A stretch of DNA of 64,000 nucleotides from Octopus vulgaris (taxonomy: Eukaryota): contig OX597836.1 in the NCBI GenBank assembly GCA_951406725.2, forward strand, positions 21,266,001 through 21,330,000, given 5' to 3'. Below are positions 20,811 through 58,804 of this stretch, piece after piece. The notes under the pieces were generated by a model that was not told the origin of the DNA, ran no database searches, and worked only from the letters and a program-made list of their open reading frames with translations. The stretch's first letter is position 1, and the number at the start of each line of letters is the position of its first letter. The position numbers and the translations under genes were made by a program.

Positions 20811-21251
20811 TTTGTGTGTGTGTGTGTGTCCTTATCTTGACATCATGGTTTATAAGCAATAATTATAAACAAGCATCACCATCATACATGCCAAGTGATG
20901 TTGTTCCCTGAAAACGTATCATGTCATGCTTTGAAACAGGTGAGTGTTAGCCACAAGAATAACATCCAACCATAGAAAAACCTGTTTCAATGAATTCCGC
21001 CTGATCTATGCAAGCATAGAACGTTAAAGACGATGATGATGATGATGTTGATGGTAACAGGAAGATCTTCCTACCATAAATCTGTCTCGACAAATTTCAT
21101 TTGACCCATACAAGCATGGAAAAATAGATGTGCAAGCACTGATAACAATACTGATGATGATGCTGGTAGTGGTGTATTGGTAATGATGATGTTCATGATG
21201 GTGATGCTGATGGGTGTTTAAATTACTAAGATGACTGATGGGATTTAATCA

Positions 21252-21562
21252 TTACATTGTTTCCTGTAATCCCATTCTTTCAATCCTTTTCCACCAGTCA
21301 CTCTGTGGGGGCACGTTGTTGACCAGACTCAAATATTCATCACGTGTTTTATTAAAATGCCATTCTTCCAAGCAGGCATATGGTAAGTTTCTATAGAATT
21401 TGTTGGCAAACAGATGTTTTTCTAAAGTAATTCGTTTGAGGTCTTGAAGTCCAAAAGCACATACACTGCGTCTAAAAGATCCGTAACATATACTTTCGTT
21501 TTTATTTTTTGTATCCTGCCAAACAACATATTTTGCCAGTTTGTAAATCTGAGAATATGAAC
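21252..21562 (-). CDS. GCNT-like last exon, distal copy (3B)
   Basis: tttattccag acceptor, phase 1; SYSQIYKLAKYVVWQDTKNKNESICYGSFRRSVCAFGLQDLKRITLEKHLFANKFYRNLPYACLEEWHFNKT...LQETM-TAA. Confidence 0.88.
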
Positions 21563-22028
21563 CTGGAATAAATTGAAAGATATAATCATATCAGAAGAAA
21601 TAAGATACATCAATGCATGGAATAACACTACTCTCTTTTACTTGTTTCAGTCATTTGACTGCAGCCATGCTGGAGCACCACCTTTAATCGAGCAACTCGA
21701 CCCCGGGACTTATTCTTTTGTAAGCCCAGTACTTATTCTATCGGTTTCTTTTGCCGAACCGCTAAGTAACGGGGACATAAACACACCAGCATCGGTTGTC
21801 AAGCAATGCTACGGAGACAAACACAGACGCACAAACACACACACACATATATATATACATATATACGACGGGCTTCTTTCAGTTTCCGTCTACCAAATCC
21901 ACTCACAAGGCTTTGGTCGGCCCGAGACTATAGTAGAAGACACTTGCCCAAGGTGCCACGCAGTGGGACTGAACCCGGAACCATGTGGTTGGTAAACAAG
22001 CTACTTACCACACAGCCACTCCTGCGCC

Positions 22029-22504
22029 TGTGTAACATGATTTTTGTCCTTGGGTAGCCACTGTTATTTTCTATTTGCTTAACCCTAGAAAGTATGAAAA
22101 ATGGCTGATATTTCCCTTCAAATTTTGTTTTTGTTACATTTATTCAAACCCCAAAGAATCTTTCTCAATACATGGCTAAGATGCTCCCCCATTACTCCTG
22201 CTCGTGATCAGAGGTGCACATATTGTCAGCCACATGCTCAAGTGATTAAGGTCAAGTAAATGACAAGAAAATCTGTAGTATTGAGCAGAATATTTGCTAT
22301 AACAATATTTCTGCTTCAGCAACTCAGCACTGAATGCATCCGAAATGTAATGGAAAATAAGTCGGTTTCAAAACATTAATGTCCAGGTCACAAAAGCAAA
22401 ATTTGAAGGGAATGGCAGTCATTTCCTTTGATTTCTAGATAGAAGTAAATAGAAAATAACACTTACTTACCAAAGACAAGAAAACTTAATATTTTGTTAG
22501 ACAG
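22029..22504. mobile_element. Non-autonomous TIR DNA element (~480 bp)
   Basis: Imperfect terminal inverted repeats ctgtgtaaca...; homologous copies at ~61495-61986 and, inverted, ~50190-50597. Confidence 0.65.
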
Positions 22505-23033
22505 TGTAATAGATGGCAAGCTGGCAGAATGGTTAGCACATTGAATGAAATGCTTGGTGGCACTTTCTCTGGCTCTCTATCTTCTGAATTCAAATCCCAC
22601 CAAGATCAAATTTGCCTTTCATAATTTCGGGGTCAATAAAATGAAGTACCAGTCCAATACTGGGGCTGATATATATTTCTTTACTACCCACAAGGGGCTA
22701 AACACAGAGGAGACAAATGGATTAAGTCAATTACATCGACCCCAGTGCGTAACTGGTACTTAATTTATCGACCCCAGAAGGATGAAAGGCAAAGTTGACC
22801 TCGGCGGAATTTGAACTCGGAATGTAACGGCAGACGAAATACGGCAACACATTTCGCCCGGCATGCTAATGTTTCTGCCAGCTTGCCACTGGGGCTGATA
22901 TAATTGATTTGTCACCTCCCTTTAGAATTACATGCCTTGAAACTTGTAACTGATCAGCATCCCATTTAGGGGAAATATCATGATACCAGTCACTTAATGT
23001 GCCATGAAACCTAGGTTGTTACCTTATGGGTCC

Positions 23034-24297
23034 CATAAGGATGGGCTGAAAAGTTCATAGGCTGACTATGAAGGAGTGATACTAGAACTGTGAAATCTTG
23101 CATTCATTAATTTTAACCCCTTTCTTATTAATAACTGCATTGTTTCTTTCCAGGTAAACTGACATCTCACTGTTCAAAGAAGGCTTCAAAAGTAACTAGT
23201 TGTGATTTCTCTTGAAAATGGGGAAAATTTGGCACCACGGTGTTATCAAGTATCTGCAGAAAAAGGGTTTAGTCCCCAAGGACATTGATGCTGACGTGGT
23301 TGCTACATTAGGAGAAGACACCCCAGCTTTATCAACAGTGCAAAAGTGAGCAGCTGAATTTAGGAGAGCAAAAGGGGGTCTTAAAGATGACCCAAGGTCT
23401 AGATGTCCTGCAATTACTACCACCAAGGAAAATATTGATCATATTCACCACACAGTGATGAATGACAGGCAATTGACTATAAATCAAAGAGCCAATGTTT
23501 GTATATCTTGTGTGAGAGTTGAGAATATTCTGCACAATGAACTTGGCATGAAAGTTTCTGCTTGGTGGATGCCACGTCTCCTGACACCCGATCAAAAGTG
23601 CACCAGGCTGATCATATTAGGGGAAAATCTGACATTGCTTGAGGTAGATCCAGCTGGTTTCCTTGAATGTTTCCTCAGCCAATGGCTTCATCACTTTGAG
23701 CCAGACACAAAGGCAATCCCTCCTTACCTGCTCCAATGAAGGCCAAGACCATTTTATCTGCAGGCAAGGTGATGGCCCCAGTTTTGGGGATGCAAAAGGC
23801 ATTGTATTTATTGAATTATTTCTAAAGGGCCACACTATCAATGAAGAGTACTATGCCAACTTTCTGAGGCAGTTATGAAAGGCTATCAAGACTAAATACC
23901 CAGGAAAACTGACTAAAGGGGTCTTGTTTCACCAGGACAATTCTTCAGCACACAAGTCCTTGGTTTCAACGGCTGCTGTGCATGTCTGTGGCTTTGAACT
24001 AGTTGATCATCCTCCCTATTCTAATTTGGCCCCATCTGACTATCATCTGTTCCCCAATATAAAAAAAAATGATTGGCTGGGAACCATTGTTGCAGTGATG
24101 ATGATGTCATGTCTGCAATTGATGACTTTTCTGACCAGCAGGAAGAAAGCTTCTTCACCAATGGGATCGAAGCCCTGCAACACCGATGAAAGAAGTGTAT
24201 GGACTGCAAGGAAGACTATGTTGAAAATAGGCCTAATTTGGTCATGTTCCATGAGAGTATCTTTGTCAGCCTATGAACTTTTCAGTTGACCCTTGTA
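23034..24297 (+). mobile_element. Full-length but inactivated mariner transposon
   Basis: ~33-bp TIRs (ctgaaaagttcataggctgac at both ends). Transposase from ATG 23218 with WMPRLL, FHQDN and HPPYS-LAPSDYHLF motifs, broken by stops and frameshifts. Confidence 0.92.
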
Positions 24298-24610
24298 GGG
24301 ATGAAAAAAGATTTTAAAAATATATGATAATTGATAGAAAATGAGAAATTGTATACAATAATTATTCTTTGGCTTTGGAAAGTCACATTGAAGCAAGGAT
24401 CTTTTTTACTAGTTTCAGTCATAAGACTGTGGCAATGGTATTGCATTGCCTTGAAGAATTTTAGTCATATAAATTAACCCCAGTACTTTTTTTAAAAGCC
24501 TAGAATTTATTCTATTGGTCTCCTTAGCCAAACCATTAAGTTACAGGAGCTTAAGCACACCAATACTACTTGTCAAGCAGTGGTGGCGAACAAACACAGG
24601 ACAGACACAG

Positions 24611-24656
<46 letters not shown>

Positions 24657-25125
24657 TTCCATCCGCCAAATTCACTCACAAGGCTTTGGTTGGTCTGAGG
24701 TTATAGTAGAAGAGATTTGTCCAAGATTCCAAACAGTACGACTGAACCTGGAACCACACAGCCATGCCTACCTTGCATGGCTGTATTGTTAACAATTTCA
24801 CATCTGATCCATGCAATTAGGGATTTGGTCCTATTGTCTGAATGTTGCCAGCTAGTGATCCATACCAAGTAGCTCCTAACCTTCTTTTAGCTCATGCCCT
24901 ACCCTGCATTGAATCTTGAATATTTCTGTGCTCCCTTCTCTCCATGGCACCGTTAACGTAAATAGTACTTCAATTTTGTGTCATATGGTTAATAGTAGAA
25001 ACTGGTCTCTTTTAAAAAGAATTTAAAATCTTTAACAAAATTTGTAAAATTTATTAAATAATAACAAAATTTTAGACAGCTGAGTGGTTGAGAAACATTG
25101 CATTGTTTCCTGTAACCCCATTTTT

Positions 25126-25391
25126 TCACCACCCCCATCCATTACCATGGGTACGCATGTCATTGGCTAGATTCACATATTCATCACATGTTTTATTAAA
25201 ATGCCATTCTTCCATGCAAGCATATGCTAAGTTTCTCTCGAATTTATTCACGAAAAGATGCTCTTTTAATATAACATGTTTAAGATCTTCAAGCCCCAAA
25301 ATGCATACACTGTGTTTATAAGATCCGGAACATGGCTTTTCACCCTTCCAGGCAACATATTTTGCTAATTTGTAAAGGTGAGAATGTGTAC
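25126..25391 (-). CDS. GCNT-like last exon, proximal copy (3A)
   Basis: tttcttccag acceptor, phase 1; THSHLYKLAKYVAWKGEKPCSGSYKHSVCILGLEDLKHVILKEHLFVNKFERNLAYACMEEWHFNKT...GWGW-TGA. Confidence 0.8.
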
Positions 25392-25538
25392 CTGGAAGAA
25401 ATTAAAGAGATACACAGATCAGGAGAAATAAGATAAATCAATACATGAAACAGTTCTATATTTAAGAGATGAGGAATTATGTACATTATTTACATTAGTT
25501 ACATTCAACGGATATTTGTCCGCATCTTGTTTGTTGTT

Positions 25539-25584
25539 AACACAATGTTTCAGCTGATATACCCTCCAGCCTTCTTCAGGTGTC
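25539..25584 (-). ncRNA. Minimal type I hammerhead-like motif
   Basis: gacac-CUGAAGA-a-ggcug...cagcu-GAAAC-AUU-guguu. Stems I and II pair; stem III is mismatched in this copy. Confidence 0.55.
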
Positions 25585-25643
25585 TTGGGGAAATTTCGAA
25601 CCTGGGTTCTCATTCCTAAGGCATTTTTCGCTGTTGTTATTGT

Positions 25644-25693
<50 letters not shown>

Positions 25694-25724
25694 GGTGTTT
25701 GTGTGTGTGTTTGTTTGTTTGTGC

Positions 25725-25755
<31 letters not shown>

Positions 25756-25989
25756 CTGCTCTTCAAAACTATAAAGCCAAAACACTGTTTTTTCTGGTGA
25801 ACTATACTCCCCAAATTCATGAAACTCACCTCAAGATAGGAAATGGAATAGAAGAAGGCATTTGAAATCCCAAAATAAATTAGATAATAAAACACAGAAA
25901 CAGAAACCCCTTGTTCAAAACTGTATTGCCAGGTTGAATAATGTTGCAAAAATGATGCAAAACAAGGAAATTATGATATATTTCAATGA

Positions 25990-27190
25990 TATTCTCATGC
26001 AATACATCAATAATTGTGCGTTTGACCACCACCTTTCTGAATTACTTCAAAGACACATGATTTCATGCTCTCAATCAATTTCTGCTGCAGAACAAGTGGA
26101 AGCTCTTCCCAGGCCTTCTTTACGGCTGTTTTAAGTTCATCAACAGATGACTACTGCTTGCCTTCCCTGTACCCAACATTTGTGAGATATTCTCAGGGAT
26201 TCTCTGTAGGATTAAGGTTGGAACTTCTTGTTGACTTCAAACCCTGTTGCATGGAGGAAATCCAAAGTTGCCTTTGCTTTATGAATAGGGACACTGTCCT
26301 GTTGAAATATAAAGATTTTGTCATGGAGCTTTCTTCCTTCTGACTCAATGTGAGCCCTGTCCAACATACCTATTTCTTTACTACCCACAAGGGGCTACAC
26401 ACAGAGGGGACAAACAAGGACAGACAAACGGATTAAGTTGATTATATCGACCCCAGTGCGCACCTGGTACTTATTTAATCGACCCCGAAAGGATGAAAGG
26501 CAAAGTCGACCTCGGCAGAATTTGAACTCAGAACGTAGCGGCAGACGAAATGCCGCTTAGCATTTCGCCTGGCGTGCTAACATTTCTGCCAGCTCGCTGC
26601 CTTGTCCAACATACCGATGTATGATGCAGCATTGAAACGGCCATCCATGATGGCAAGTGGCAGCTTCCCATTGGTAGATATTGCTCCCCAATAAGACCTC
26701 TTTTGCTGTTCAGTCACTTGGAATAAACAGAAATTTGTAGACATTTATCTGCCCAGTAATACTTATAACCGTTGGGGCCATCCAACTTCCATTTCTTCTC
26801 ATCAGGGAACACAACTCTGGTCTATTCACTATCCCATGTCTGATGCTGCCAAGCAAATACCAGTCTAACAGTTTTGTGTGAAGGGGACAATAGCAGACGT
26901 CCTAGCTGCTTCTTCCGGTGGAAACCATTGTTCAAAATCACTCTTCTTATGGTGGATGTCAAGGTTCCTACTTCTGCTGATGCCTTTATTTTGGAAACAG
27001 AAGAGCAGCATGACTTCTTCACAGCTCTGACAATGGTCCTTTCAGCCCTTTCTTGTAGCTGTCAAGATCTTTCACAAAATTGTCTACTGGTATACTGCTT
27101 CACTGAATCTTCTTGGCAATCTTCTAGTTACCCATTCCTTCCACTTTCAGTGCAAGAATCTTCCCTAGCTCAATTTTGGAAAGCTTTGTA
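25990..27190 (-). mobile_element. Degenerate Tc1/Tc3-like transposase fossil, interrupted by a family A SINE
   Basis: LLLSPSHKTVRLVFA...W and FPDEKKWKLDGPNG (FSDEKKFNLDGPDG-like) on the minus strand. Confidence 0.7.
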
Positions 27191-27598
27191 GCTTTAGGCA
27201 TACTGGAAATGTAATCTAAACCATGGAGATTTCGGTTGAGCTGAATATTTTCTGCAACAATTTGTAAAGAAATGAAAATATATTAGTGGCTTTATAGTTT
27301 TGAAGTGTTGATAACCTAGGGAAAATTAGAAAATCAGATGTTGTAATGTGATAATAAAGATACAAGGTTTTCATTTCAATGTATTCATGAAATGCTCATT
27401 TACAATATATTATGCCCCTTAGTCCACTTAAATACAGAGCTAAATTTCTAAATAACTTTAAAAAACAGATGGGTTTATAGTTTTGAAAAGTAGTTCATAC
27501 ATATATATATAGGGAAAGTTTACGAAAAAAACAAAAGACGAAGACAGGTGGTGTACAAAAACAGATGTATTAGTATAAAGTTCAGGAATAGAAAAAGT

Positions 27599-27634
27599 CT
27601 TTTACGTTTCGAGCCTACGCTCTTCTACAGAAAG
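27599..27634 (-). ncRNA. Minimal hammerhead-like motif with variant core (CUGUAGA)
   Basis: cuuu-CUGUAGA-a-gagc-guag-gcuc-GAAAC-GUA-aaag; sister copy at 19511-19546 (+). Confidence 0.45.
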
Positions 27635-28847
27635 GGACACAGAAAAAACAAGGAGAGAAACAATATATATATAATCCATTATCATTGAGTTTGACAAAAT
27701 ATACACACTGTTTTGCCAACTAATAATTACAGATTAAATATTTTTCCACTCCGAGACTCATCAGACATAGCTTCTTCTTGAACTTGTCAAACTCTGGGAT
27801 AATAAACACATACACACACTCATATATGATGGGATCCCACACAGTTTCTGCTTACTAAATTTAGTCATAAGACATTGGTTGGTCCGGAAGTATAGTAGAA
27901 GAAACTTGCTCAAGGTGTTGCACCATGTGACTGAATCAGAAACCATGTGGTTGTAAAGCAAGCTTTTTAACCAAACAGCCATACATGTGCCTAGCTATAA
28001 AGGAATAGATCGGCCATTTATTGCAGCAGCTATCCACTAAATATATTTATGCTAAAATATGAATAAAATCATTCTTTGAAGTAGTTAGAGAAAATTTGGC
28101 CAAAGAATTAAAGAATAAAGTTTTCATTTAAAATTCCTAATTCAGACACCTTTTACCTTTTACTTATTTCAGTAATTAGACCGTTGCCATGCTGGGGCAC
28201 TGCCTTGAAGAATTTTTAGTTAAATGAATGGATCTCAGTGTTTTATTTTTTTTTCAAGCGTGGTTCTTATTCTATTGGTCTCTTTTGCTGAACCACTAAA
28301 TAGATAAACTTACCTGCATTTCAACAAGTTTTCTGTAGAGGGCAAAAATTGGAGAGTAGACAAAGAAATTTAGATGTCATTTTAGGGATTTCAAAGTAAA
28401 ACTAAGAGAAAACAACATCATAATCCTTAAGGATTAAGATGCATAAACACAACCAAATTCTTCCAGAGAGAAAGGAGAAAAAAAAAGGAAGAACCTAATA
28501 CCCAACTGGTACTGGATTATTTATCAATCCCTAAAGAATGAAAGGCAAAGCTGACTGCTGTAGAATTTGAATTTGTAATGCAGAGATCTGGAACAAATGC
28601 TGCAAAGCATTCTGTCCACTACTCCAACATTTCCTCTCATTCGCTCACTCACTTTTAGTAGTTGGGACCTAAGTTGAATTACTACTGTATGTAGTTTTTA
28701 TTGAAATCCTATCATTGACATAAAGTTATGCATTTAAAGGAAGGGTACATTGGTCAAATTCAGCACACTATTTGATTGCTAGTTGATTTTATCAAACTCA
28801 CAGGGATAAAAGGCAAAGTTGACTTCAGTGAGAGTTGAACTCAGAAC

Positions 28848-28932
28848 AGTCCATATACAGATAACACTTAGCTGTATATGGGCTTAGTTGTATATGGACT
28901 TAGCTGTATATGGTCTTAGCTGTATATGGACT
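28848..28932. repeat. 16-bp tandem repeat (cttagctgtatatgga) x4 plus one inverted partial copy
   Basis: Directly visible; agtccatatacag at 28848 is the reverse complement of the unit core. Confidence 0.85.
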
Positions 28933-28971
28933 ATTTCACCATAACAAATACAGTTTAAAAATTTAACTTAC

Positions 28972-29207
28972 TATTATAAGGATGTGGTGATCCAATATGT
29001 GTATTATAAAAAATGGTGGGGTATACAGATTCATCTGGAATAGTTGTGTTTCTTAGCCAATTTATTAAATCCTGAGCAATTCGGTTATTGACTGTATAGT
29101 TTATAAAGTCTCGAGTTACTGCAACATAGTGTGACCCTTTAGCTAACGTGATATTGTGTGGTACTGGTTTCTGTTTTAATGCTTTCCTCCATCTGTGTAT
29201 CCAACGT
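28972..29207 (-). CDS. GCNT-like coding exon 2 (not in ORF track), contains the catalytic PDE motif
   Basis: ttttctgcag acceptor; RWIHRWRKALKQKPVPHNITLAKGSHYVAVTRDFINY...WLRNTTIPDESVYPTIF; A|gtaagt donor. Phase 2 in, phase 1 out. Confidence 0.94.
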
Positions 29208-30325
29208 CTGCAGAAAAGTAAATTTAAAAACCAAATTTAAGAGAGAAGAGAATGCATTTTAACAGTCAATCTATTGTATAAATGGTAACATACTCACCTG
29301 TCAGGAAGGAAACATGTGTGTTCCAAGAACCCTCAATGACTGTTTTTTTTTTTTTTTCATATTAGTGTTGGTCTCTTGAAGGTTATTCACAGGGTCCTGA
29401 AAGATCCAAGGCAGATGAGACCCTTCAGCTCTTTAGTTGTTCATCTGAGAGAAAGTAACTCCATGCAGGTCCTACAACCTGATAACCTCCTGGGCTCATG
29501 ATACTTGCTGTACCGGAACAAAATAATTTTGAGGCATGAAAGAGTAGGACTGGCTCTGCACAAACCATGCCCATTATAACAATAAACCCCTGCAGCCTTG
29601 TGAGCATTTTACATCAGCTAAAGGATTAAACCTCCACAGAAAATCCAAATTGGGTGATCCTAAGGCAGATGTGTACAGTTGTACTTCACCAGTATCAGGC
29701 ATTCCCTGTTACTCTATGTATGCTACAAACATATTAATTTGTTTTTCCTTTGTATTATATTTACGAATGAAGAGGTGGTAAGTATACTTAGGGCTAGACA
29801 CTTGCTTCTGGGTACAGGCTAGGTATGGTAGATGGGGTTAAGTTACAGTCTCTGCAACACCACTGACCAATGAAGCAAAAAAGGCCAACCTTTCAAGATA
29901 TACAACCCAATAATTTATTTATATTGCAATATTACATTAAATACTATGAATATAATTTAACATAATATTATATAACATAAATAATTATAAAAACCAAGTT
30001 GGCCTTTTATGGTCTTAGAAATTGTTGTAGGTCTCTGCTACATATATATATATATATATATATATAGCTCATTTATACCTGCCTTTATGGCTTATAGGTT
30101 AAATAGGTATGACTACTAAACAGCTGTCAGTTTTGATTTATTTGCATATTATATTTGAAATTTTTACTTATATCTCTTTATCTTTTACTATTTACTGTAT
30201 ATCTCATTTCATTTTATATATTGCCTTTACTCATATGTAATGGTGTATTAAAGTATGGATTGAGTATCATCGGATAGTTGATGTTTTACTGATTTAAGTA
30301 TGTTTCTCCATTCTCTAATTTTGTA

Positions 30326-30390
<65 letters not shown>

Positions 30391-31107
30391 GATGAGAAAA
30401 TTAATGTCTGATAGAAAGCTTACAATGTTGCAGCAGTAAAGCATATGTAAATTTGAAAAACAAAAACCTATTTAGTTCAATGTGTGTAGACAGGTTTTTT
30501 TCAAGTGCATTCAATGCATGTCACCTCCAAAGATAGGGCTGCTATTTCTAGCACGCCGTGCTACCACGTAACAGTTGTTTGTGATAAAGGACCAAAAATA
30601 CTTGTTATGAGGTATCAGGGCATCACCAGAGTCCATCATCCAGCAGTACCCACAGCGGTGGATTGGTTGAGAGGACAGCCTTCCTTTTCTAGTTGCCAGC
30701 TAGGGATTTTACTACTACTACTGCTGCTGCTACATCATCTACATCATCATCATCATCATCATCATCCTCATCATCCTCATCATCATCATCACATTCATCA
30801 TCATCTATATTTAGGGAGAGTATGTCCAAATGCCCTAACTATGACTAACCCATCTACCTATTTCCAAGTGAAGTAATAAGTCTACTGAATGACAAACAGC
30901 CTGGACAATGTTTATATGGAAAACTGGAAATAAATGACACTGTGTGAATGAACACTTTATTTACAAAGATTGCATAACATGTCAAAAATCTGAATGCGTT
31001 CTTGCAATGGACTGCAAACAAACGGCGCCATTAGTGAAATCATTCTTCAAATTAATTATATATTGTATGTATTGTATGTATTAAAATGTCACAAACGTGA
31101 AGAAAAA

Positions 31108-31620
31108 GAAATAAGGAATTATCAAATTATTGAATGTGAAATTTAGATGTTTTCAAATAATAAATTTTAAACAGTAGGAAAGCAAATAAATAAGAAATTA
31201 TCAAATTATTGAATGTGAAATTTAGATGTTTTCAAATAATAAATTTTAAACAGTAGGAAAGCAAATAAATAAGAAATTATCAAATTATTAAATGTGAAAT
31301 TTAGATATTTTCAAAAATTAAATTTTAAACAGTAGGAAAGCAAATAAATAAGAAATTATCAAATTATTAAATGTGAAATTTAGATATTTTCAAAAATTAA
31401 ATTTTAAACAGTAGGAAAGCAAATAAATAAGAAATTATCAAATTATTAAATGTGAAATTTAGATATTTTCAAAAATTAAATTTTAAACAGTAGGTAAGCA
31501 AATAAATAAGAAATTATCAAATTATTAAATGTGAAATTTAGATATTTTCACAAATTATTAAATGTGAAATTTAGATATTTTCAAAAATTAAATTTTAAAC
31601 AGTAGGAAAGCAAATAAATT
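31108..31620. repeat. 79-bp AT-rich tandem repeat, about 6.5 copies
   Basis: taagaaatta recurs at 31191, 31270, 31349, 31428 and 31507. Confidence 0.93.
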
Positions 31621-31660
31621 TGATTGAAAGTAAATTAAGAAAAAGCAATTTGATTCATAC

Positions 31661-32391
31661 CTGAAGTCAAGTTCGACAATATTTTTTCCATTAAGTCCTC
31701 GAAGAAACCTGACTATCTGAAGATTAGTTTTTAAAGGGAAATCCATTCCACAAAGATTAATGTAATAACGCCATGATGAAAAGCGCAACAAGTCTCTCAT
31801 CACTACCAGATCTGCTTCAACAAGGCTAAAATCACCCCACTTTATAGCAAATCTTTTACTGCTTAGAAACACATTTGGGAAGCATTCAGCAATTGATTTG
31901 GCGACATGGTAGTCAGAAATGGCTGCTTTTTGGTCCAGATGGATGACATATATGTTCTGTGGGCGGTATATTGCTCTTAGAAGTTGCTCCATTTGTGTGA
32001 CTTGATTATGAAAGAATATTCCATAGGCAATTGGGAAAGATTCCTCTTCTATTGTCATACTGTTCGTGAAGTATCCTCTTTCAGTTATCAACCTTGAACA
32101 GTTTTTTGACAGCTTCAACAAGTCTTCTGCAGGATGTGGATATTTCTTTGCTTGCTCCTTTAATTCAGGTGATGTTTGAAAATCATTATCAAAAATCTTG
32201 GCACAGTTAAAAGAATCAACTTTGCGATTTGAAAGTGTCATCAAAGCTTTCCTTACGAATTCTGATTTTAACATTAGTATTGACTTTCTTTTCCTGCTAG
32301 TAAACATTATTATTATCATCATAAGGATGAATAAAATTACAAGTGTTGAATAAGATTTTCTTATTGAAGACACTTTTCTCCAAAAGTTCAT
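31661..32391 (-). CDS. GT14 beta-1,6-N-acetylglucosaminyltransferase (core-2/I-branching, GCNT-like), coding exon 1
   Basis: Type II TM anchor, then FPIAYGIFFH, LLRAIYRPQNIYVIHLD, CFPNVF, WGDFSLVEADL, YYINLCGMDFPLKTN; AG|gtatga donor at 31660. Confidence 0.95.
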
Positions 32392-42430: not shown

Positions 42431-42535
42431 AATAACAGAAATAGCTTTAAAATGTAGCAGTAATTCACTAATATTAAATGAAAGTGAATCAGGAAAGAAA
42501 AAAAAAAGATGCTCCAGCTAGGGCTTTAAAAGCCA

Positions 42536-43430
42536 ATGATTGTAACAAAGATTAAGGATAAAATTTGGCAAAAAGTAAATGAACAAGCAAAAACAGATAA
42601 AGATCTGACGATGAACATGTCAAATAACTTTTCAGATCTTTTAACGAAGACTGTATTTCACGAATCTCTTGTGCTTCGCATTGTGGAAGTCAGTATCATA
42701 GTAATTCTTATTGTTCTCTGTGTAGTTGGTAACTGTTTGTTGTTTTACATAATAGTTACCACTAGTCCACGCTGGTGGACGACACCAGCAAATTTCTTCA
42801 ATGTCAATCTGGCATTTACAGACTTGATGGTCGGAATCGTAGTGCTGCCGTTCATGGCTATGTCAATCAGCTGGCAGTCGTGGCTGCTATCGGACATCCT
42901 GTGTCAGAGTACGGCGTTTGCCACGATCCTGCTCATGGCAAGTTCCACTCTGACATTGTCGGTTATTTCACTTGATCGCTACTTCTGCATCTGTTTACCA
43001 CTTCGTTACCAATCTGTAGTGACCACTGAGAGGGTGGCCTCTGTTGTCGCTGTTTTGTGGCTAACAAGCTTCCTATTGGCTAGTATACCACTGTTTGGTT
43101 GGGGTAGGTACACATTCCGTCCTCAGTCCATACCGATATGCAGTGTGCTTTTGGAAGGACAGCAGCGCCACGTCATATTGCTTTGGTCCTTCATGATAAT
43201 ATTGCCGGTAACAGTGATGATCTATTCTTACATGCAAATTCTAAAGGTTGCTCGGAAACAAGCAAATCAGATTGGATGTGTTGAGAACCATTTCAATTCT
43301 AGGATGATGACGGGAACTAATGAAACCATTGGAACATCCCAGAATGGAACCATTTCCTTTGGGAACAACGACAGCAAGCACTTCGTGTCTCGCAGTTTGA
43401 AATCCTTGAAAATCGTTTCAATTATCATTG
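42536..43430 (+). CDS. Class A (rhodopsin-family) orphan GPCR, exon 1 (TM1 to start of TM6)
   Basis: GN (TM1), NLAFTD (TM2), C3.25...SLDRY, W4.50/PLFGWGRY, LP/YSY (TM5); G|gtgagt donor. The true start could be a downstream ATG (about 42611). Confidence 0.93.
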
Positions 43431-46177
43431 GTGAGTAATTAAAAAAGGCATTTCTTCCGTATATCCTCCTTATCATCCTCATCATCAGCACCAGCACCAC
43501 CAGCACCACCACCACCATCACTCCAGTCCACTCAGCTGGCAAAAATGAGTAATGCTGCCATAGACTGGCATCCCGTCCAGCTGGGGAACACATACGCCAT
43601 AGAAACCGGGCCCATGAGCCTGGCTAGGCTTTAAAAGGGTGCATTTATTATTTTTATTATATCCCACAAAATTGATTTCTTCGTCTGCCGTAAAGGCATT
43701 TTTTTCCAAATACGCCAGCTAAGCTAAGTTGAACTGTCTAAAGTCGAAAGACACCTGTTGTTTTTGTCCTGTTATTATTATTATTGTTTTTTGTACTTAT
43801 ATTCGTGTGGCATCGTCCGTTTTTCTGTCCTTGTTTCGTATACATTCGATCCTTTTTCCAAGAAATCTAATGCTTGTAGCTTAGTTTTGTCTTGGGGCTG
43901 GCCGGATTGGAGCGATCTCAAGATTAATCAGCCGAAATTGCGAGGATGATCCGGTTCTTGACTGAAGATTAGAGGCTTCAAATGACCCGTCCGTTTTTTT
44001 GTGTCGTCTATTTGAATGTTTTGCGTTCTTGTCCCATTTTGTATTTTTATATATATTTTTTATACATATATATTATATATATATATATATAAGAAAACAA
44101 TATATGGGCTTCATGGATGTGATGATAACAAGTGACTGAGACCTCTGGCGATATGCTGTGTATGAGAAGACTCATCAGGCCGTGTGACCAAGACCTCTGG
44201 TGATAATCTGTGAATGAGAAAACTGATCAGGCCAAGTGCAATTGTAGCTGGCCTGATCAGTTGTAGCTGTGGCGGTATCATATAGATGGCACTTGTGACA
44301 AAGTGGTTGTGGCCATTGCTGGTGCCATGAAAACGGCGTCTGTGAAATTGGAGTTGGGCAGTCACTGGTGCCTTGTAGATGAATCATAGTCATAGTTGTG
44401 GTCATTGACAGTGCCATGTAAATGACACCCATGTATTGTAGTCATGGTGGTTGCCAGTACCATATAAAGGGCTCCCATGAATCCTTGTGATCACTGTGGG
44501 TGCCATGTGAATGGCACCCATGCTGGTGGTATGTAAAATCACCCATTACACTCCCTGGAGTGGTTGGCATTAGGAAGGGCATCCAGCCATAGAAACACTG
44601 CCAAATCAGACTGGAACCTGGTGCAGCTCTCTGGCTAATCATCACCAGTTAAACCATCTAACCCATGTCAGCATGGAAAGTGAATGTTAAATGATGATGA
44701 TGATGATGATGATGATGACATACATACATACCTAGATACATACATACATACCTACATACATACATACCTACATACATACATACATATACATACATACATA
44801 TACATACATACATATACATACATACATACCTACCTACATACATACAAACATACATATACATACATACATACCTACCAACATACATACATACATACAATGA
44901 GCTTCTACACAGTTTATGTCTACCAAATTCATCTACAATGCATTGGTCAGCTTAGAGCTATAGCAGAAGATATTTGTCCAATGTGCCATGCTGTGAGATT
45001 GAACCATTCCCAGCCCCATAGCCATGCCTATACCTTTCCTGATTAATACCTCCAATCTGTTTTTGAATTTTGACCTTTTGAATTTTGACCACAGATGGTG
45101 CATTGAGAATGACTACATTGTTAAGTTTTGTGTGTATTTATAGAAATGACTTATTGCTGATTTAGTCACGGAACAAACAAAATCACAATCGTTTTCACCT
45201 TAGGTAGTTTTCTCACATTGATTTTAAAATGCAAATAGATGTTCACTGATGTTAAATTTTGTTGTTGTCTACATACAAATATATCCAGCTGTGCTGTATT
45301 TACTATTCATGTTCTCTTGTCTCAAAGCTATTGAATAAAATATAAAGCTTAACATAAATGTGTCACCAACTACATGTGTTACCAACATAAATGTGTTACC
45401 AACTACATGGTTCCGGGTTCAGTCCCACTGCATGGCACCTTGGGCAAGTGTCTTCTAGTATAGCCTCGGGCCGACCAATGCCTTGTGAGTGGATTTGGTA
45501 GACAGAAACTGAAAGAAGCCTGTCGTGTATATGTATATATATATATGTGTGTGTGTGCGTGTATGTTTGTGTGTCTGTGTTTGTCCTCCTAGCATTGCTT
45601 GACAACCGATGCTGGTGTGTTTATGTCCCCGTCACTTAGCGGTTCGGCAAAAGAGACCGATAGAATAAGTACTGGGCTTACAAAGAATGAGTCCCGGGGT
45701 CGAGTTGCTCGATTAAAGGCGGTACTCCAGCATGGCCGCAGTCATATGACTGAAACAAGTAAAAGAGTAAAGAGTATGTGTGAAAGAGCATGGCTCAGTG
45801 GTTAGAGCATTAAGCTCATAATCCTGGGGTAGTGAGTTCAATTCCTAGACCAGGCTGTGCATAGTGGTCTTGAGCTAGACACTTCATTTCTCATAGCTCT
45901 AGTTTAGTCAGCTGCAGAAATGAGTCGTGATGCCCTTGGCGCCAAGTTGTATCAGCGTTTGCCTTTCTCTTGGATAATATCAGTGGTGTGGAAAAAGGGT
46001 GGTTTGTATGCGTGAGCAACTGTTGATCATCCATAAACCACCTTGTCCAGACTTGTAGCTTAGAGGGGAGCTTTCAGGGTGCAATTCCATGGCTACTAAT
46101 GACTGAAGGGAGTCTTTGCCTTTACCTTTTAAATCTGTATAATGTTATATGTGAGTTTGTATGCCTATGTGCATGCA

Positions 46178-50300: not shown

Positions 50301-50646
50301 GAAACTTACCAATTTTCCATTACATTTTCAGAGATTTAGCACTGAGTTGCTGAAGCAGGTTTTTCTAGAATTTTTCTAAAAGTTACAAGAATTTCTAGAA
50401 CATTCTAGTAACATAAATGGTAGTATAAATACAGGGATCATAAGCTCAACAGTTCAGTTTACTTCTAGCTGTCCAAGAGGAGACAGGTTTTAGGAAAGCA
50501 AATTTTGGAGAAAATATTAGCCATTTGTCATACTTTTTAGGGGTAAGCAAAAAGGAAACAACAGTTGCTACCCAAGGATAAAAATCCTGTTACACAGTGT
50601 TGTCTTTTATTTCTTTCTAAGTGTTTTTCATATTTTTATTTTTCAG

Positions 50647-50852
50647 GTACTTTCTTTTTGTGTTGGGGTCCATATATAGGATTCAACTTCTGGTGCCTGG
50701 ATAATGCTAAACCAATTCCTTATCTGGGTGATTTATTGACAACGTTCTTGGCTTTCACGAACAGTTCCGTTAATCCGTACCTTATTATAATGTTCAACCG
50801 AGATTTTAAAATTGCATTTCGAAATATTTTCAAGAGCAGGCAGCAGGAATAA
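50647..50852 (+). CDS. Orphan GPCR exon 2 (TM6-TM7-helix 8)
   Basis: tttttcag acceptor, phase 1; GTFFLCWGPY (CWxP), NSSVNPYL, NRDFKIAF; TAA. Confidence 0.93.
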
Positions 50853-56850: not shown

Positions 56851-57288
56851 CTGAAAAAAAAAAAAGGCATCAGAACATCAACAACATTATCATCATCAAC
56901 TTCAGCAAAGTCATTACCACCACCACCAAGGTGGGCAGAAAAACTGCTTCAAGGATACACAAAAAGCCTCACTGAAGTGCTTTTAGATCAACCCTGACAC
57001 CTGAGAAATGCAAACACAGGACCAATCTGCCTGGCATAGCTGCTCCAACAGAGGTACCACCTCCTACAAACAGAATAGAATGTCAAATAATCGCATCAAA
57101 GTCTCAAAGCTGAAAGACAATGCTGCATGATACATTAAAAACAATGTGAATAAATAAGCATTACAGTTGGCAGAGAAATCGTGAATGCCAAAAGGCTAAC
57201 GACATTTTAGTCTTGTGTTCAACATTCATTTAACTATGGTGACTATGACTGTTTGTTCTGCTGCTCTGTAGGATTAAGATTATCTTAC

Positions 57289-57426
57289 CTGCTGTTGTTG
57301 AAGGAATTCTTTCTCATAGATTTCTCCAAGACTCAATTTACTCTTCTCCTGGTCGAGTACAACAGCTTTCTTGTATTCAAATGGTGCCACGGGTACTTTG
57401 GATTTTCGTTCAACATCATCCCAAGC
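57289..57426 (-). CDS. MPHOSPH10: MPP10 exon
   Basis: AWDDVERK...YKKAVVLDQEKSKLSLGEIYEKEF; ttgcag / CAG|gtaaga. Confidence 0.97.
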
Positions 57427-58804
57427 CTGCAAATAAAAGGGTAACATGCCATCATTATCATCATCACCACCATTACCATCATCACCACCACTATTCCCCT
57501 CCTCTGCCATCACAATAACAATAATAATCCTTTCTACTAAAAGCACAAAGCCTGAAATTATTGGGGAAGGGGCTAGTTGATTACATCGACCCCAGTGTTT
57601 CATTGGTACTTAATTTATCGATCCCGAAAGGATGAAAGACAAAGTCGACCTTGACAGAATTTGAACTCAGAACATAAATAATAATAATGATGGTGATGCA
57701 CGTGCCTGGTGTACCCTTATCAGACAGGCAGTCATGAAGGGTATGTTAGCCTTTGTATATTTGTACCCCAATGTCACTTTGATGGTATGCCTTGCTCTTT
57801 CACTCAATAATAATAATTGTTTAAAATTTTGGCAAAAGCCCAGCAATTAGAGAAGGAGGGGGCAAGTTCATTACATTGATCCCTGTACCTCACTGGTCTG
57901 ATCGCTCTGACAGGAAATGCAAAGTCAGTCTTGGCAAAATTTGAACTTAGAATGTAAACAGGAGTGGCTGTGTGGTAAGTAGCTTGCTAACCAACCACAT
58001 GGTTCTGGGTTCAGTCCCACTGCGTGGCATCTTGGGCAAGTGTCTTCTGCTATAGCCCCGGGCCGACCAATGCCTTGTGAGTGGATTTGGTAGACAGAAA
58101 CTGAAAGAAGCCTGTCGTATATATGTATATATATATAAGTGTGTGTGTATATGTTTGTGTGTCTGTGTTTGTCCCCCTAGCATTGCTTGACAACCGATGC
58201 TGGTGTGTTTACGTCCCCGTCACTTAGCGGTTCGGCAAAAGAGACCGATAGAATAAGTATTGGGCTTACAAAGAATAAGTCCCGGGGTCGATTTGCTCGA
58301 CTAAAGGCGGTGCTCCAACATGGCCGCAGTCAAATGACTGAAACAAGTAAAAGAGTAGAGTAAAAAGAACTTGAAGTAATGCCACTAAGCCTTTAGTCGT
58401 TGTCGTCATTGTCAGCAGCAGCCACCACCACCACCACCACCAGCTGCTGCTGCCATCCTGTCCCCTTTCCCATGCTTGTGTGAGTCTTTCTTTCCAACAC
58501 AGCTACCACTTGTTGCAATCCTTTGTCACCGGTTTTGTGGAAGTTCAGTTTCCTAAGATCATCCTTCACCACTTTTGGCCATGTCTTCCTTAGTTTTACT
58601 CCTCCCTTGGATCTTTCCACATTAGTCTCCTGCACATTACATGTCCATATCACCATAGCCACCGGCCTTGCACACTACAATCGATTCTTCTCATATGCCC
58701 AGTTTTTCTCTCAGTTCCTCTTATATCTCGTCATTCATACGCATCAACATTCCACACACACAGAACAGATCATGCTTACTTCATTTCTTTCCATCCTTCA
58801 CATA

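Follow-up and report, generated by a model that had tools for sequence, protein, structure and literature searches.

A single GT14 (GCNT-like) gene whose last exon exists in two homologous copies, 3A and 3B, lies on the minus strand of the stretch of Octopus vulgaris DNA analyzed here (64,000 nucleotides [nt]; OX597836.1, 21,266,001–21,330,000; hereafter the window, in whose numbering all positions are given). The gene has one exon 1 and one exon 2, which, like the two last exons, occupy the coordinates assigned to them in an earlier interpretation made from the letters alone (the sequence-only reading):

31661–32391 (−): coding exon 1, 731 nt, with the signal-anchor helix, the stem and the N-terminal half of the GT14 (Branch) domain
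28972–29207 (−): shared exon 2, 236 nt, with a phase-1 donor (A/GTAAGT) and the PDE motif that contains Glu303 (29032–29030)
25392–25450 (−): duplicated acceptor region before 3A, identical to 21563–21622 at 50 of 60 columns
25126–25391 (−): last exon 3A, with W337, a W-to-C spacing of 6, C343, His349, C352, K372 and C381; isoform of 410 amino acids (aa)
21563–21622 (−): duplicated acceptor region before 3B, homologous to the flank of 3A
21252–21562 (−): last exon 3B, with W337, a W-to-C spacing of 11, C348, Arg354, C357, K377 and C386; isoform of 425 aa

The acceptors of 3A and 3B lie 3580 and 7409 nt, respectively, downstream of the exon 2 donor. Both last exons follow a ttccag, start with GT and are entered in phase 1, which places Ser at the junction; joining exon 2 to either leaves an open frame (410 or 425 aa) with the final stop only, as the sequence-only reading had proposed. 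Aligned over 376 nt, of which approximately 60 are upstream intron (about 55 bp had been noted before), the two copies show 74.5% identity, and no second exon 1 or exon 2 occurs between them or elsewhere in the window. The difference in the loop between the conserved Trp and Cys also stands as described, as does the variable residue six positions after that Cys, which is His in 3A (His349, CAC, 25314–25312) and Arg in 3B (Arg354, CGC, 21470–21468). A late frameshift had been attributed to 3A; the copies do differ in frame there, but this is no peculiarity of 3A, because the frame of the 3B tail itself differs between species (P0002 vs. P0066).

The two-last-exon layout is already annotated in RefSeq, where both isoforms are listed (as isoforms X1 and X2) for two octopus species. 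P0002 (XP_029649954.1, 425 aa) ends in 3B and differs from the window at 5 residues, and P0001 (XP_029649955.1, 410 aa) ends in 3A and differs at 6; their source species is likely O. sinensis, and our exon 1 model matches both at 99%. The corresponding O. bimaculoides pair comprises P0066, which ends in 3B, and P0067, which ends in 3A. Within each pair the first 322 residues are common to both members. Literature searches naming octopus recovered no paper that we recognized as treating the isoforms of this gene; the relevant text of PMC8976471 is limited to a Gcnt1-like transcript. The UniRef label of P0067 as a xylosyltransferase was rejected: the isoforms are only 410–425 aa long, and their closest similarity is to GCNT1 (E 1e-62 to 1e-63) rather than to XT1 (E ~1e-16 to 1e-17); the XYLT1/2 features, a Xylo_C domain and XT1 as the nearest match, are lacking.

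Three further protein models and one candidate processing signal involve additional elements of the locus:

27130–27251 (−): cryptic exon in intron 2, with its acceptor before 27251; used in P0069
25303–25309 (−): internal donor within 3A (exon end 25309, GTATGC); the join 25309>21562 yields the frameshifted 396-aa RefSeq isoform P0065
25050–25055 (−): AATAAA past the 3A stop, a candidate proximal poly(A) signal through which one contig of run X11 (below) continues

P0065 runs from the internal 3A donor into 3B out of frame, and its C-terminus is reproduced exactly from the window. The truncated P0068 (326 aa) uses the cryptic exon, as judged by its KNIQ end. P0069 (508 aa), which matches the window exons, strings exon 2, the cryptic exon, 3A and 3B together in one frame.

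Contigs from public sequencing runs (presumed, though not recorded, to be RNA) were mapped over 21000–29300 in four runs and over 3A alone in four runs; such contigs show neither expression levels nor transcript ends. The two junctions expected by the sequence-only reading, 28972>25391 and 28972>21562, are both present in spliced contigs, in which the GT-AG introns are excised exactly. The join of exon 2 to 3A appears in three of the four runs: at 25391 the contigs of X1, X5 and X11 break off with 28, 21 and 27 loose letters, respectively, which match the end of exon 2. The fourth run, X14, gave no contig over 3A and is uninformative. The join to 3B is bridged in full by a 588-nt contig (contig 18 of X3) in which 241 nt of exon 2 are followed directly by 215 nt of 3B. 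The X1 contig over exon 2 breaks off where the exon does, as at a branch, and separate 3A and 3B contigs carry 31 and 30 extra letters, respectively; exon 2 is spanned end to end by contigs of X1, X2 and X3. Contig depths (in X1, 42.8 for 3A and 14.2 for 3B; in X2 and X3, similar for the two copies) are unfit to rank the isoforms and were not used.

These contigs bear on the possibility that the pair is an artefact, either because a second gene has been collapsed in the assembly or because both exons are read in tandem in one frame. The gene model P0069 is an instance of the latter, and 3A does contain a usable GT at 25145. However, contigs of three runs cross 25145 without a loose end, the X3 contig joins exon 2 straight to 3B, the genomic contig OX597836.1 holds one exon 1, and the same two-isoform layout occurs in the annotations of two other species. 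The tandem-inclusion model of P0069 is thus unsupported by the contigs, and an artefact, which these data largely refute, is very improbable. A processed copy as the source of the junctions is likewise unlikely, because the assembly search found neither 3B nor exon 1 in another close copy. The join of the internal donor at 25309 to 3B is absent from the contigs mapped, and the contigs of three runs show no difference at 25313 that would indicate editing of the His codon (CAC) to Arg, although contigs drop rare variants.

A 657-nt contig of X11 contains 3A and 3B together in genomic order: it runs from the end of 3A into its untranslated tail (window 24902–25245), then through 287 other letters, and into a 73-nt 3B-like piece. 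The 7 differences in that piece fit 3B; of the 287 letters, 161 would belong to the first part of 3B, which leaves 126 unexplained.

Docking/selector pairing was also considered, in this one genome. Of 198 inverted pairs, the 25 inspected were mostly repeats or microsatellites, and none stood out. Complementary microsatellites (24601–24655 and 25695–25752, ~1040 nt apart) flank 3A, and an inverted short-repeat pair (22582–22662 and 28766–28846) spans it. Either pair could loop 3A out; such repeats are ubiquitous in this DNA.

The duplication appears in this gene only, among the candidates scored. A genome search with 3B gave at least eight matches, namely 3A, 3B and six on other contigs, and each of those six last exons lies near an exon 1 of its own. 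When part of exon 1 served as the query, at least 10 matches were obtained, of which one lies on this contig and the best of the others is 50–52% identical (match counts are lower bounds). A tree of 37 C-terminal segments unites 3A and 3B in a single clade (support 100/100), within which the copies sort by exon across sources (3A 95/94; 3B more weakly, 89/10), and path lengths are 0.61–0.69 between copies and 0.17–0.18 between species. The duplication is therefore local, as the sequence-only reading had it, and arose before the divergence from O. bimaculoides. Over the whole domain, the best representatives that rank after P0002 are ~43% identical or less; the best nine comprise the octopus paralogue P0190 and eight from a flatworm, from other molluscs or with incomplete names. 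No squid or cuttlefish orthologue was recognized among these best representatives, so that the age of the duplication is bounded from below only. A second C-terminal motif within one protein was found in none of 153 proteins, and a candidate parallel duplication in Sinanodonta (ACJMK2_038522) was rejected, its isoforms being truncations rather than homologous swaps.

Both last exons are retained in three octopus sequence sources. Between 3A and 3B, synonymous divergence (dS) is 0.54 and the ratio of non-synonymous to synonymous divergence (dN/dS) is 0.33 (bootstrap 0.15–0.75), as calculated over 69 codons that leave out the loop and tail, and the four invariant exon columns (C343, C352, K372 and C381) are kept in both copies (4/4). 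Conservation of the acceptor flanks exceeds that of synonymous sites (50/60 identical; 15.5 of 40.2 synonymous sites differ; Fisher p = 0.02), the pattern expected if both acceptors are maintained. These data must be set against a possible history in which splicing uses both exons, with 3A functionally equal to 3B or weakened under relaxed selection and its His and shortened loop tolerated as drift. We regard such redundancy or decay as unlikely, although it is the most credible of the alternatives. It would account for a tree in which the stem of 3A exceeds that of 3B (0.39 vs. 0.06; support for the position of their root is weak) and for recent change in 3A that is compatible with neutrality, and it accords with rapid evolution of the whole gene (exon 1 differs from P0067 at 25 of 244 residues), with a 3B W-to-C spacing that varies by species (11 vs. 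10), and with frameshifted tails; past the last conserved helix the tails are unconstrained, and 3B itself terminates in one frame in P0002 and in another in P0066. On the other hand, despite the divergence of the copies at synonymous sites, the open frame, the cysteines, the Lys401 equivalent, the His and the spacing of 6 are kept in 3/3 sources of 3A, the flanks of both acceptors are conserved, and His at this position is common in the family.

Both isoforms are predicted to fold as complete GT-A enzymes like mouse GCNT1 (C2GnT-L). Exons 1 and 2 match the Pfam PF02485 model (E = 5.9e-25, 88.7 bits, and E = 1.6e-9, 38.2 bits, respectively; cut-off 23.4), which 3A and 3B fall outside; they match the mouse GCNT1 structure 2GAK in sequence instead, and this is the closest structure by sequence to both isoforms (E 1.7e-63 and 4.4e-62). 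The predicted models, built from 87-row alignments, have predicted local distance difference test (pLDDT) values of 90.2 and 90.5, and in a fold search with both the top match was again 2GAK (E ~1e-33; template modeling score 0.69–0.73 by query). The isoforms thus show the Branch domain, the PDE Glu, the N-terminal membrane anchor and, in the models, the GT-A fold of the Core-2/I-branching (GT14) enzymes.

Glu303, in the PDE motif of shared exon 2, aligns with Glu320 of GCNT1, the catalytic base. The last exon holds the Trp356–Cys381 loop, the Arg378 column and Lys401 (GCNT1 numbering); alignment to 2GAK places the variable residue at Arg378, in line with the sequence-only reading, and the 23-residue gap from Arg378 to Lys401 is the same in the GCNT1 structure and in both copies. 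The equivalents of Arg378 and Lys401 are both present in 3B, and 3A has the Lys401 equivalent with His at 378 and a Lys adjacent to that His. In GCNT1, Arg378 and Lys401 are described as holding the β-phosphate of uridine diphosphate in place of a metal ion (PMC3961637; PMC4202792), and the mouse enzyme as inactive with Ala at either position (PMC3961637). The equivalent loop is described as taking part in recognition of donor and acceptor (PMC5992326), and GCNT1 is named among enzymes with acceptor contacts in a late variable region (PMC7948508). Because the loop and both basic positions lie in the last exon, the swap touches the active site.

The sequence-only reading had gone further and taken His with a short loop as the mark of an I-branching enzyme, so that one gene could encode a core-2 (GCNT1-like) enzyme through 3B and an I-branching (GCNT2-like) enzyme through 3A. 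This is not supported by a survey of 149 homologues, of which 101 match the motif and 48 do not. At the Arg378 column the matched sequences have Arg in 77, His in 20 and another residue in 4, and His is independent of loop length (median W-to-C spacing 8.5 in 14 His rows vs. 9 in 63 Arg rows; p = 0.87). Arg is found in all six further multi-exon paralogues of this genome, and in several of these the spacing is 6–8, like that of 3A. Conversely, His is combined with the GCNT1-type 16-residue loop in P0255, a GCNT1-like protein of a herpesvirus. His with a short loop is therefore non-diagnostic across homologues. The assignment of 3B to the GCNT1 type fares no better: its spacing is 11 or 10 (6 in 3A) vs. 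16 in GCNT1, and both exons lack GCNT1 Tyr358 (W+2), which we take to be important, with Gly or Asp instead (Asp or Thr in the 3B of different sources).

That 3B and 3A should make core-2 and I-branches, respectively, or broadly different linkages on different acceptors, is accordingly a decidedly doubtful proposition. The swapped exon does carry the donor/acceptor loop and the Arg378 column; however, Arg378 is a donor-phosphate residue, and the acceptor-side parts in exons 1 and 2 are common to both isoforms. In PMC11609255, knockdown of GCNT3 in one cell line is described as reducing an I-branched glycan, and the GCNT3-like P0023 has Arg; the cephalopod paragraph of a 2015 review lists neither core-2 nor I-branched glycans. 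The core-2 vs. I-branch mapping is not supported past one residue, the His that we presume GCNT2 to have at the 378 column. The homologue searches returned no named vertebrate GCNT2 sequence. A search with a GCNT7 C-terminus had none named GCNT2 among the matches listed (120 of 262), nearly all of which are named GCNT7; its listed matches supplied 113 new sequences, 64 with the motif (Arg in 50, Gln in 11 and His in 3) and 49 without. If W328 and G348/G350 of GCNT2, which are tabulated in PMC5147899, are, as we assume, the corresponding residues, their spacing of 20–22, vs. 18 in 3A, 22–23 in 3B and 28 in GCNT1, would be a mere lead against a GCNT2-like 3A.

Two intronless GCNT-like sisters elsewhere in this genome (support 98/93), L016 (G000:C16:2713242-2716616) and L017 (G000:C7:4460310-4463684), have Arg and His, respectively, and the L017 His is preceded by Lys, as in 3A. 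This is a second, independent Arg/His difference in the genome. A broader proposal, that the gene makes two branching enzymes with different acceptors or linkages and that Arg-to-His is a recurrent functional switch in GT14, seems to us improbable, if slightly less so than the core-2/I-branch assignment.

The explanation that we favor, and consider somewhat probable from the sequence data, is that the last exon was duplicated in tandem, that exon 2 is spliced to either copy, and that the products are likely two active Golgi isoenzymes that differ in the donor/acceptor loop. The near 3A acceptor, coupled to 3′-end formation behind 3A, would compete with the far 3B acceptor, in the manner that PMC8373072 describes for duplicated C-terminal exons. 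Both isoforms would share the catalytic base, and the loop that holds donor and acceptor would set them apart; 3B is predicted to keep the usual Arg378/Lys401 pair, and 3A would be the derived copy, with His (next to a Lys), Lys401 and the shorter loop. The difference between them would probably lie in rate, pH or acceptor preference within β-1,6-N-acetylglucosamine transfer, and not in a clean GCNT1-to-GCNT2 switch.

Several observations weigh against this explanation. The full bridge from exon 2 to 3B is a single contig, the runs are only presumed to be RNA, and the X11 contig carries 3B sequence past the 3A stop, i.e., as untranslated tail. The similarity of the acceptor flanks could also reflect gene conversion, or the choice of flanks by alignability. 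Differences between 3A and 3B are only weakly depleted at conserved columns (3/17 vs. 24/54; p = 0.08). Between the window and X11, whose 3A letters reproduce the 3A of P0067 at 86 of 87 residues, 3A has 13 non-synonymous and 4 synonymous changes (dN/dS 0.73; neutrality p = 0.39), so that recent change in 3A, on 17 substitutions, is indistinguishable from neutral. Finally, because Ala at Arg378 abolishes the activity of mouse GCNT1 as reported in PMC3961637, His could weaken 3A.

Tandem duplicated last exons have precedents in human and Drosophila. PMC8373072 describes 236 human substitution events derived from tandem exon duplication, of which 77 are C-terminal and made by alternative poly(A) use. 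The octopus gene resembles these in that a duplicated 3′ coding exon yields isoforms identical but for a homologous C-terminus, and its homologous tandem last exons are both spliced to the same upstream exon; candidate poly(A) signals are present, although the contigs cannot show ends and X11 continues past AATAAA. Unlike the human events, more than 90% of which are dated to the teleost ancestor in that account, the octopus pair is apparently lineage-restricted, with the next homologues at ~43%.

Drosophila Pip is a Golgi glycan sulfotransferase. Its 3′ variable region and those of PGRP-LC and CG42235 are described as joining constant 5′ exons to one of several tandem 3′ cassettes (PMC6191721), as in the octopus gene; Pip has 10 multi-exon cassettes, vs. 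two single-exon cassettes here, and docking/selector pairing is a feature of the Drosophila regions, whereas the octopus pairings are mainly repeat-derived. Within the same family, human GCNT2 (IGnT A/B/C; PMC5147899) likewise makes isoforms from one locus by swapping a homologous coding exon. However, GCNT2 is described as swapping its first exon and sharing exons 2–3, with isoforms that are all IGnT, whereas the octopus gene swaps its last exon, which holds the loop and both donor-binding basic positions; the likeness is at the level of the family. Compared with mouse GCNT1 (2GAK, 2GAM, 3OTK), both isoforms have the equivalents of Glu320, Trp356, Cys372, Cys381 and Lys401, and 3B has that of Arg378; they differ from it in overall identity (34–36%), in a shorter segment around 243–254 and, for 3A, in the His at 378.

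The remaining features of the window are as follows:

21632–24756 (strand not assigned): repeat-filled spacer from 3A to 3B, with multi-copy short repeats at 21632–22033, 22514–22888 and 24400–24756
23032–24299 (strand not assigned): element with 40-nt terminal inverted repeats within that spacer, which we take to be mariner-like
~31100–31640: tandem array of ~7 copies of an AT-rich ~65-nt unit at the start of intron 1
42530–43435 (+): exon of a rhodopsin-family G-protein-coupled receptor (PF00001, E = 5e-39)
50547–50849 (+): reading frame with an NP-x-x-like seventh-helix stretch, which may be the last exon of that receptor
57283–57609 (−): reading frame ending in a stretch that presumably resembles the U3 small nucleolar ribonucleoprotein MPP10

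As the design of the gene is known and its isoforms are in RefSeq, a specialist in splicing would not be surprised by the structure on its own. The value of the pair lies in its being a natural experiment, identical over 322 residues and differing only in the segment that contains the GT14 loop for donor and acceptor together with the Arg378 column. Mouse GCNT1 cannot do without Arg378, but a fifth of homologues have His in this column, and our literature searches found no test of the His state there. The two isoforms allow the effect of His, the role of the loop in acceptor choice, and the control of glycan branching by splicing in octopus to be probed; and if Arg/His were a recurrent switch in the family, the pair would test that switch on an otherwise identical protein.

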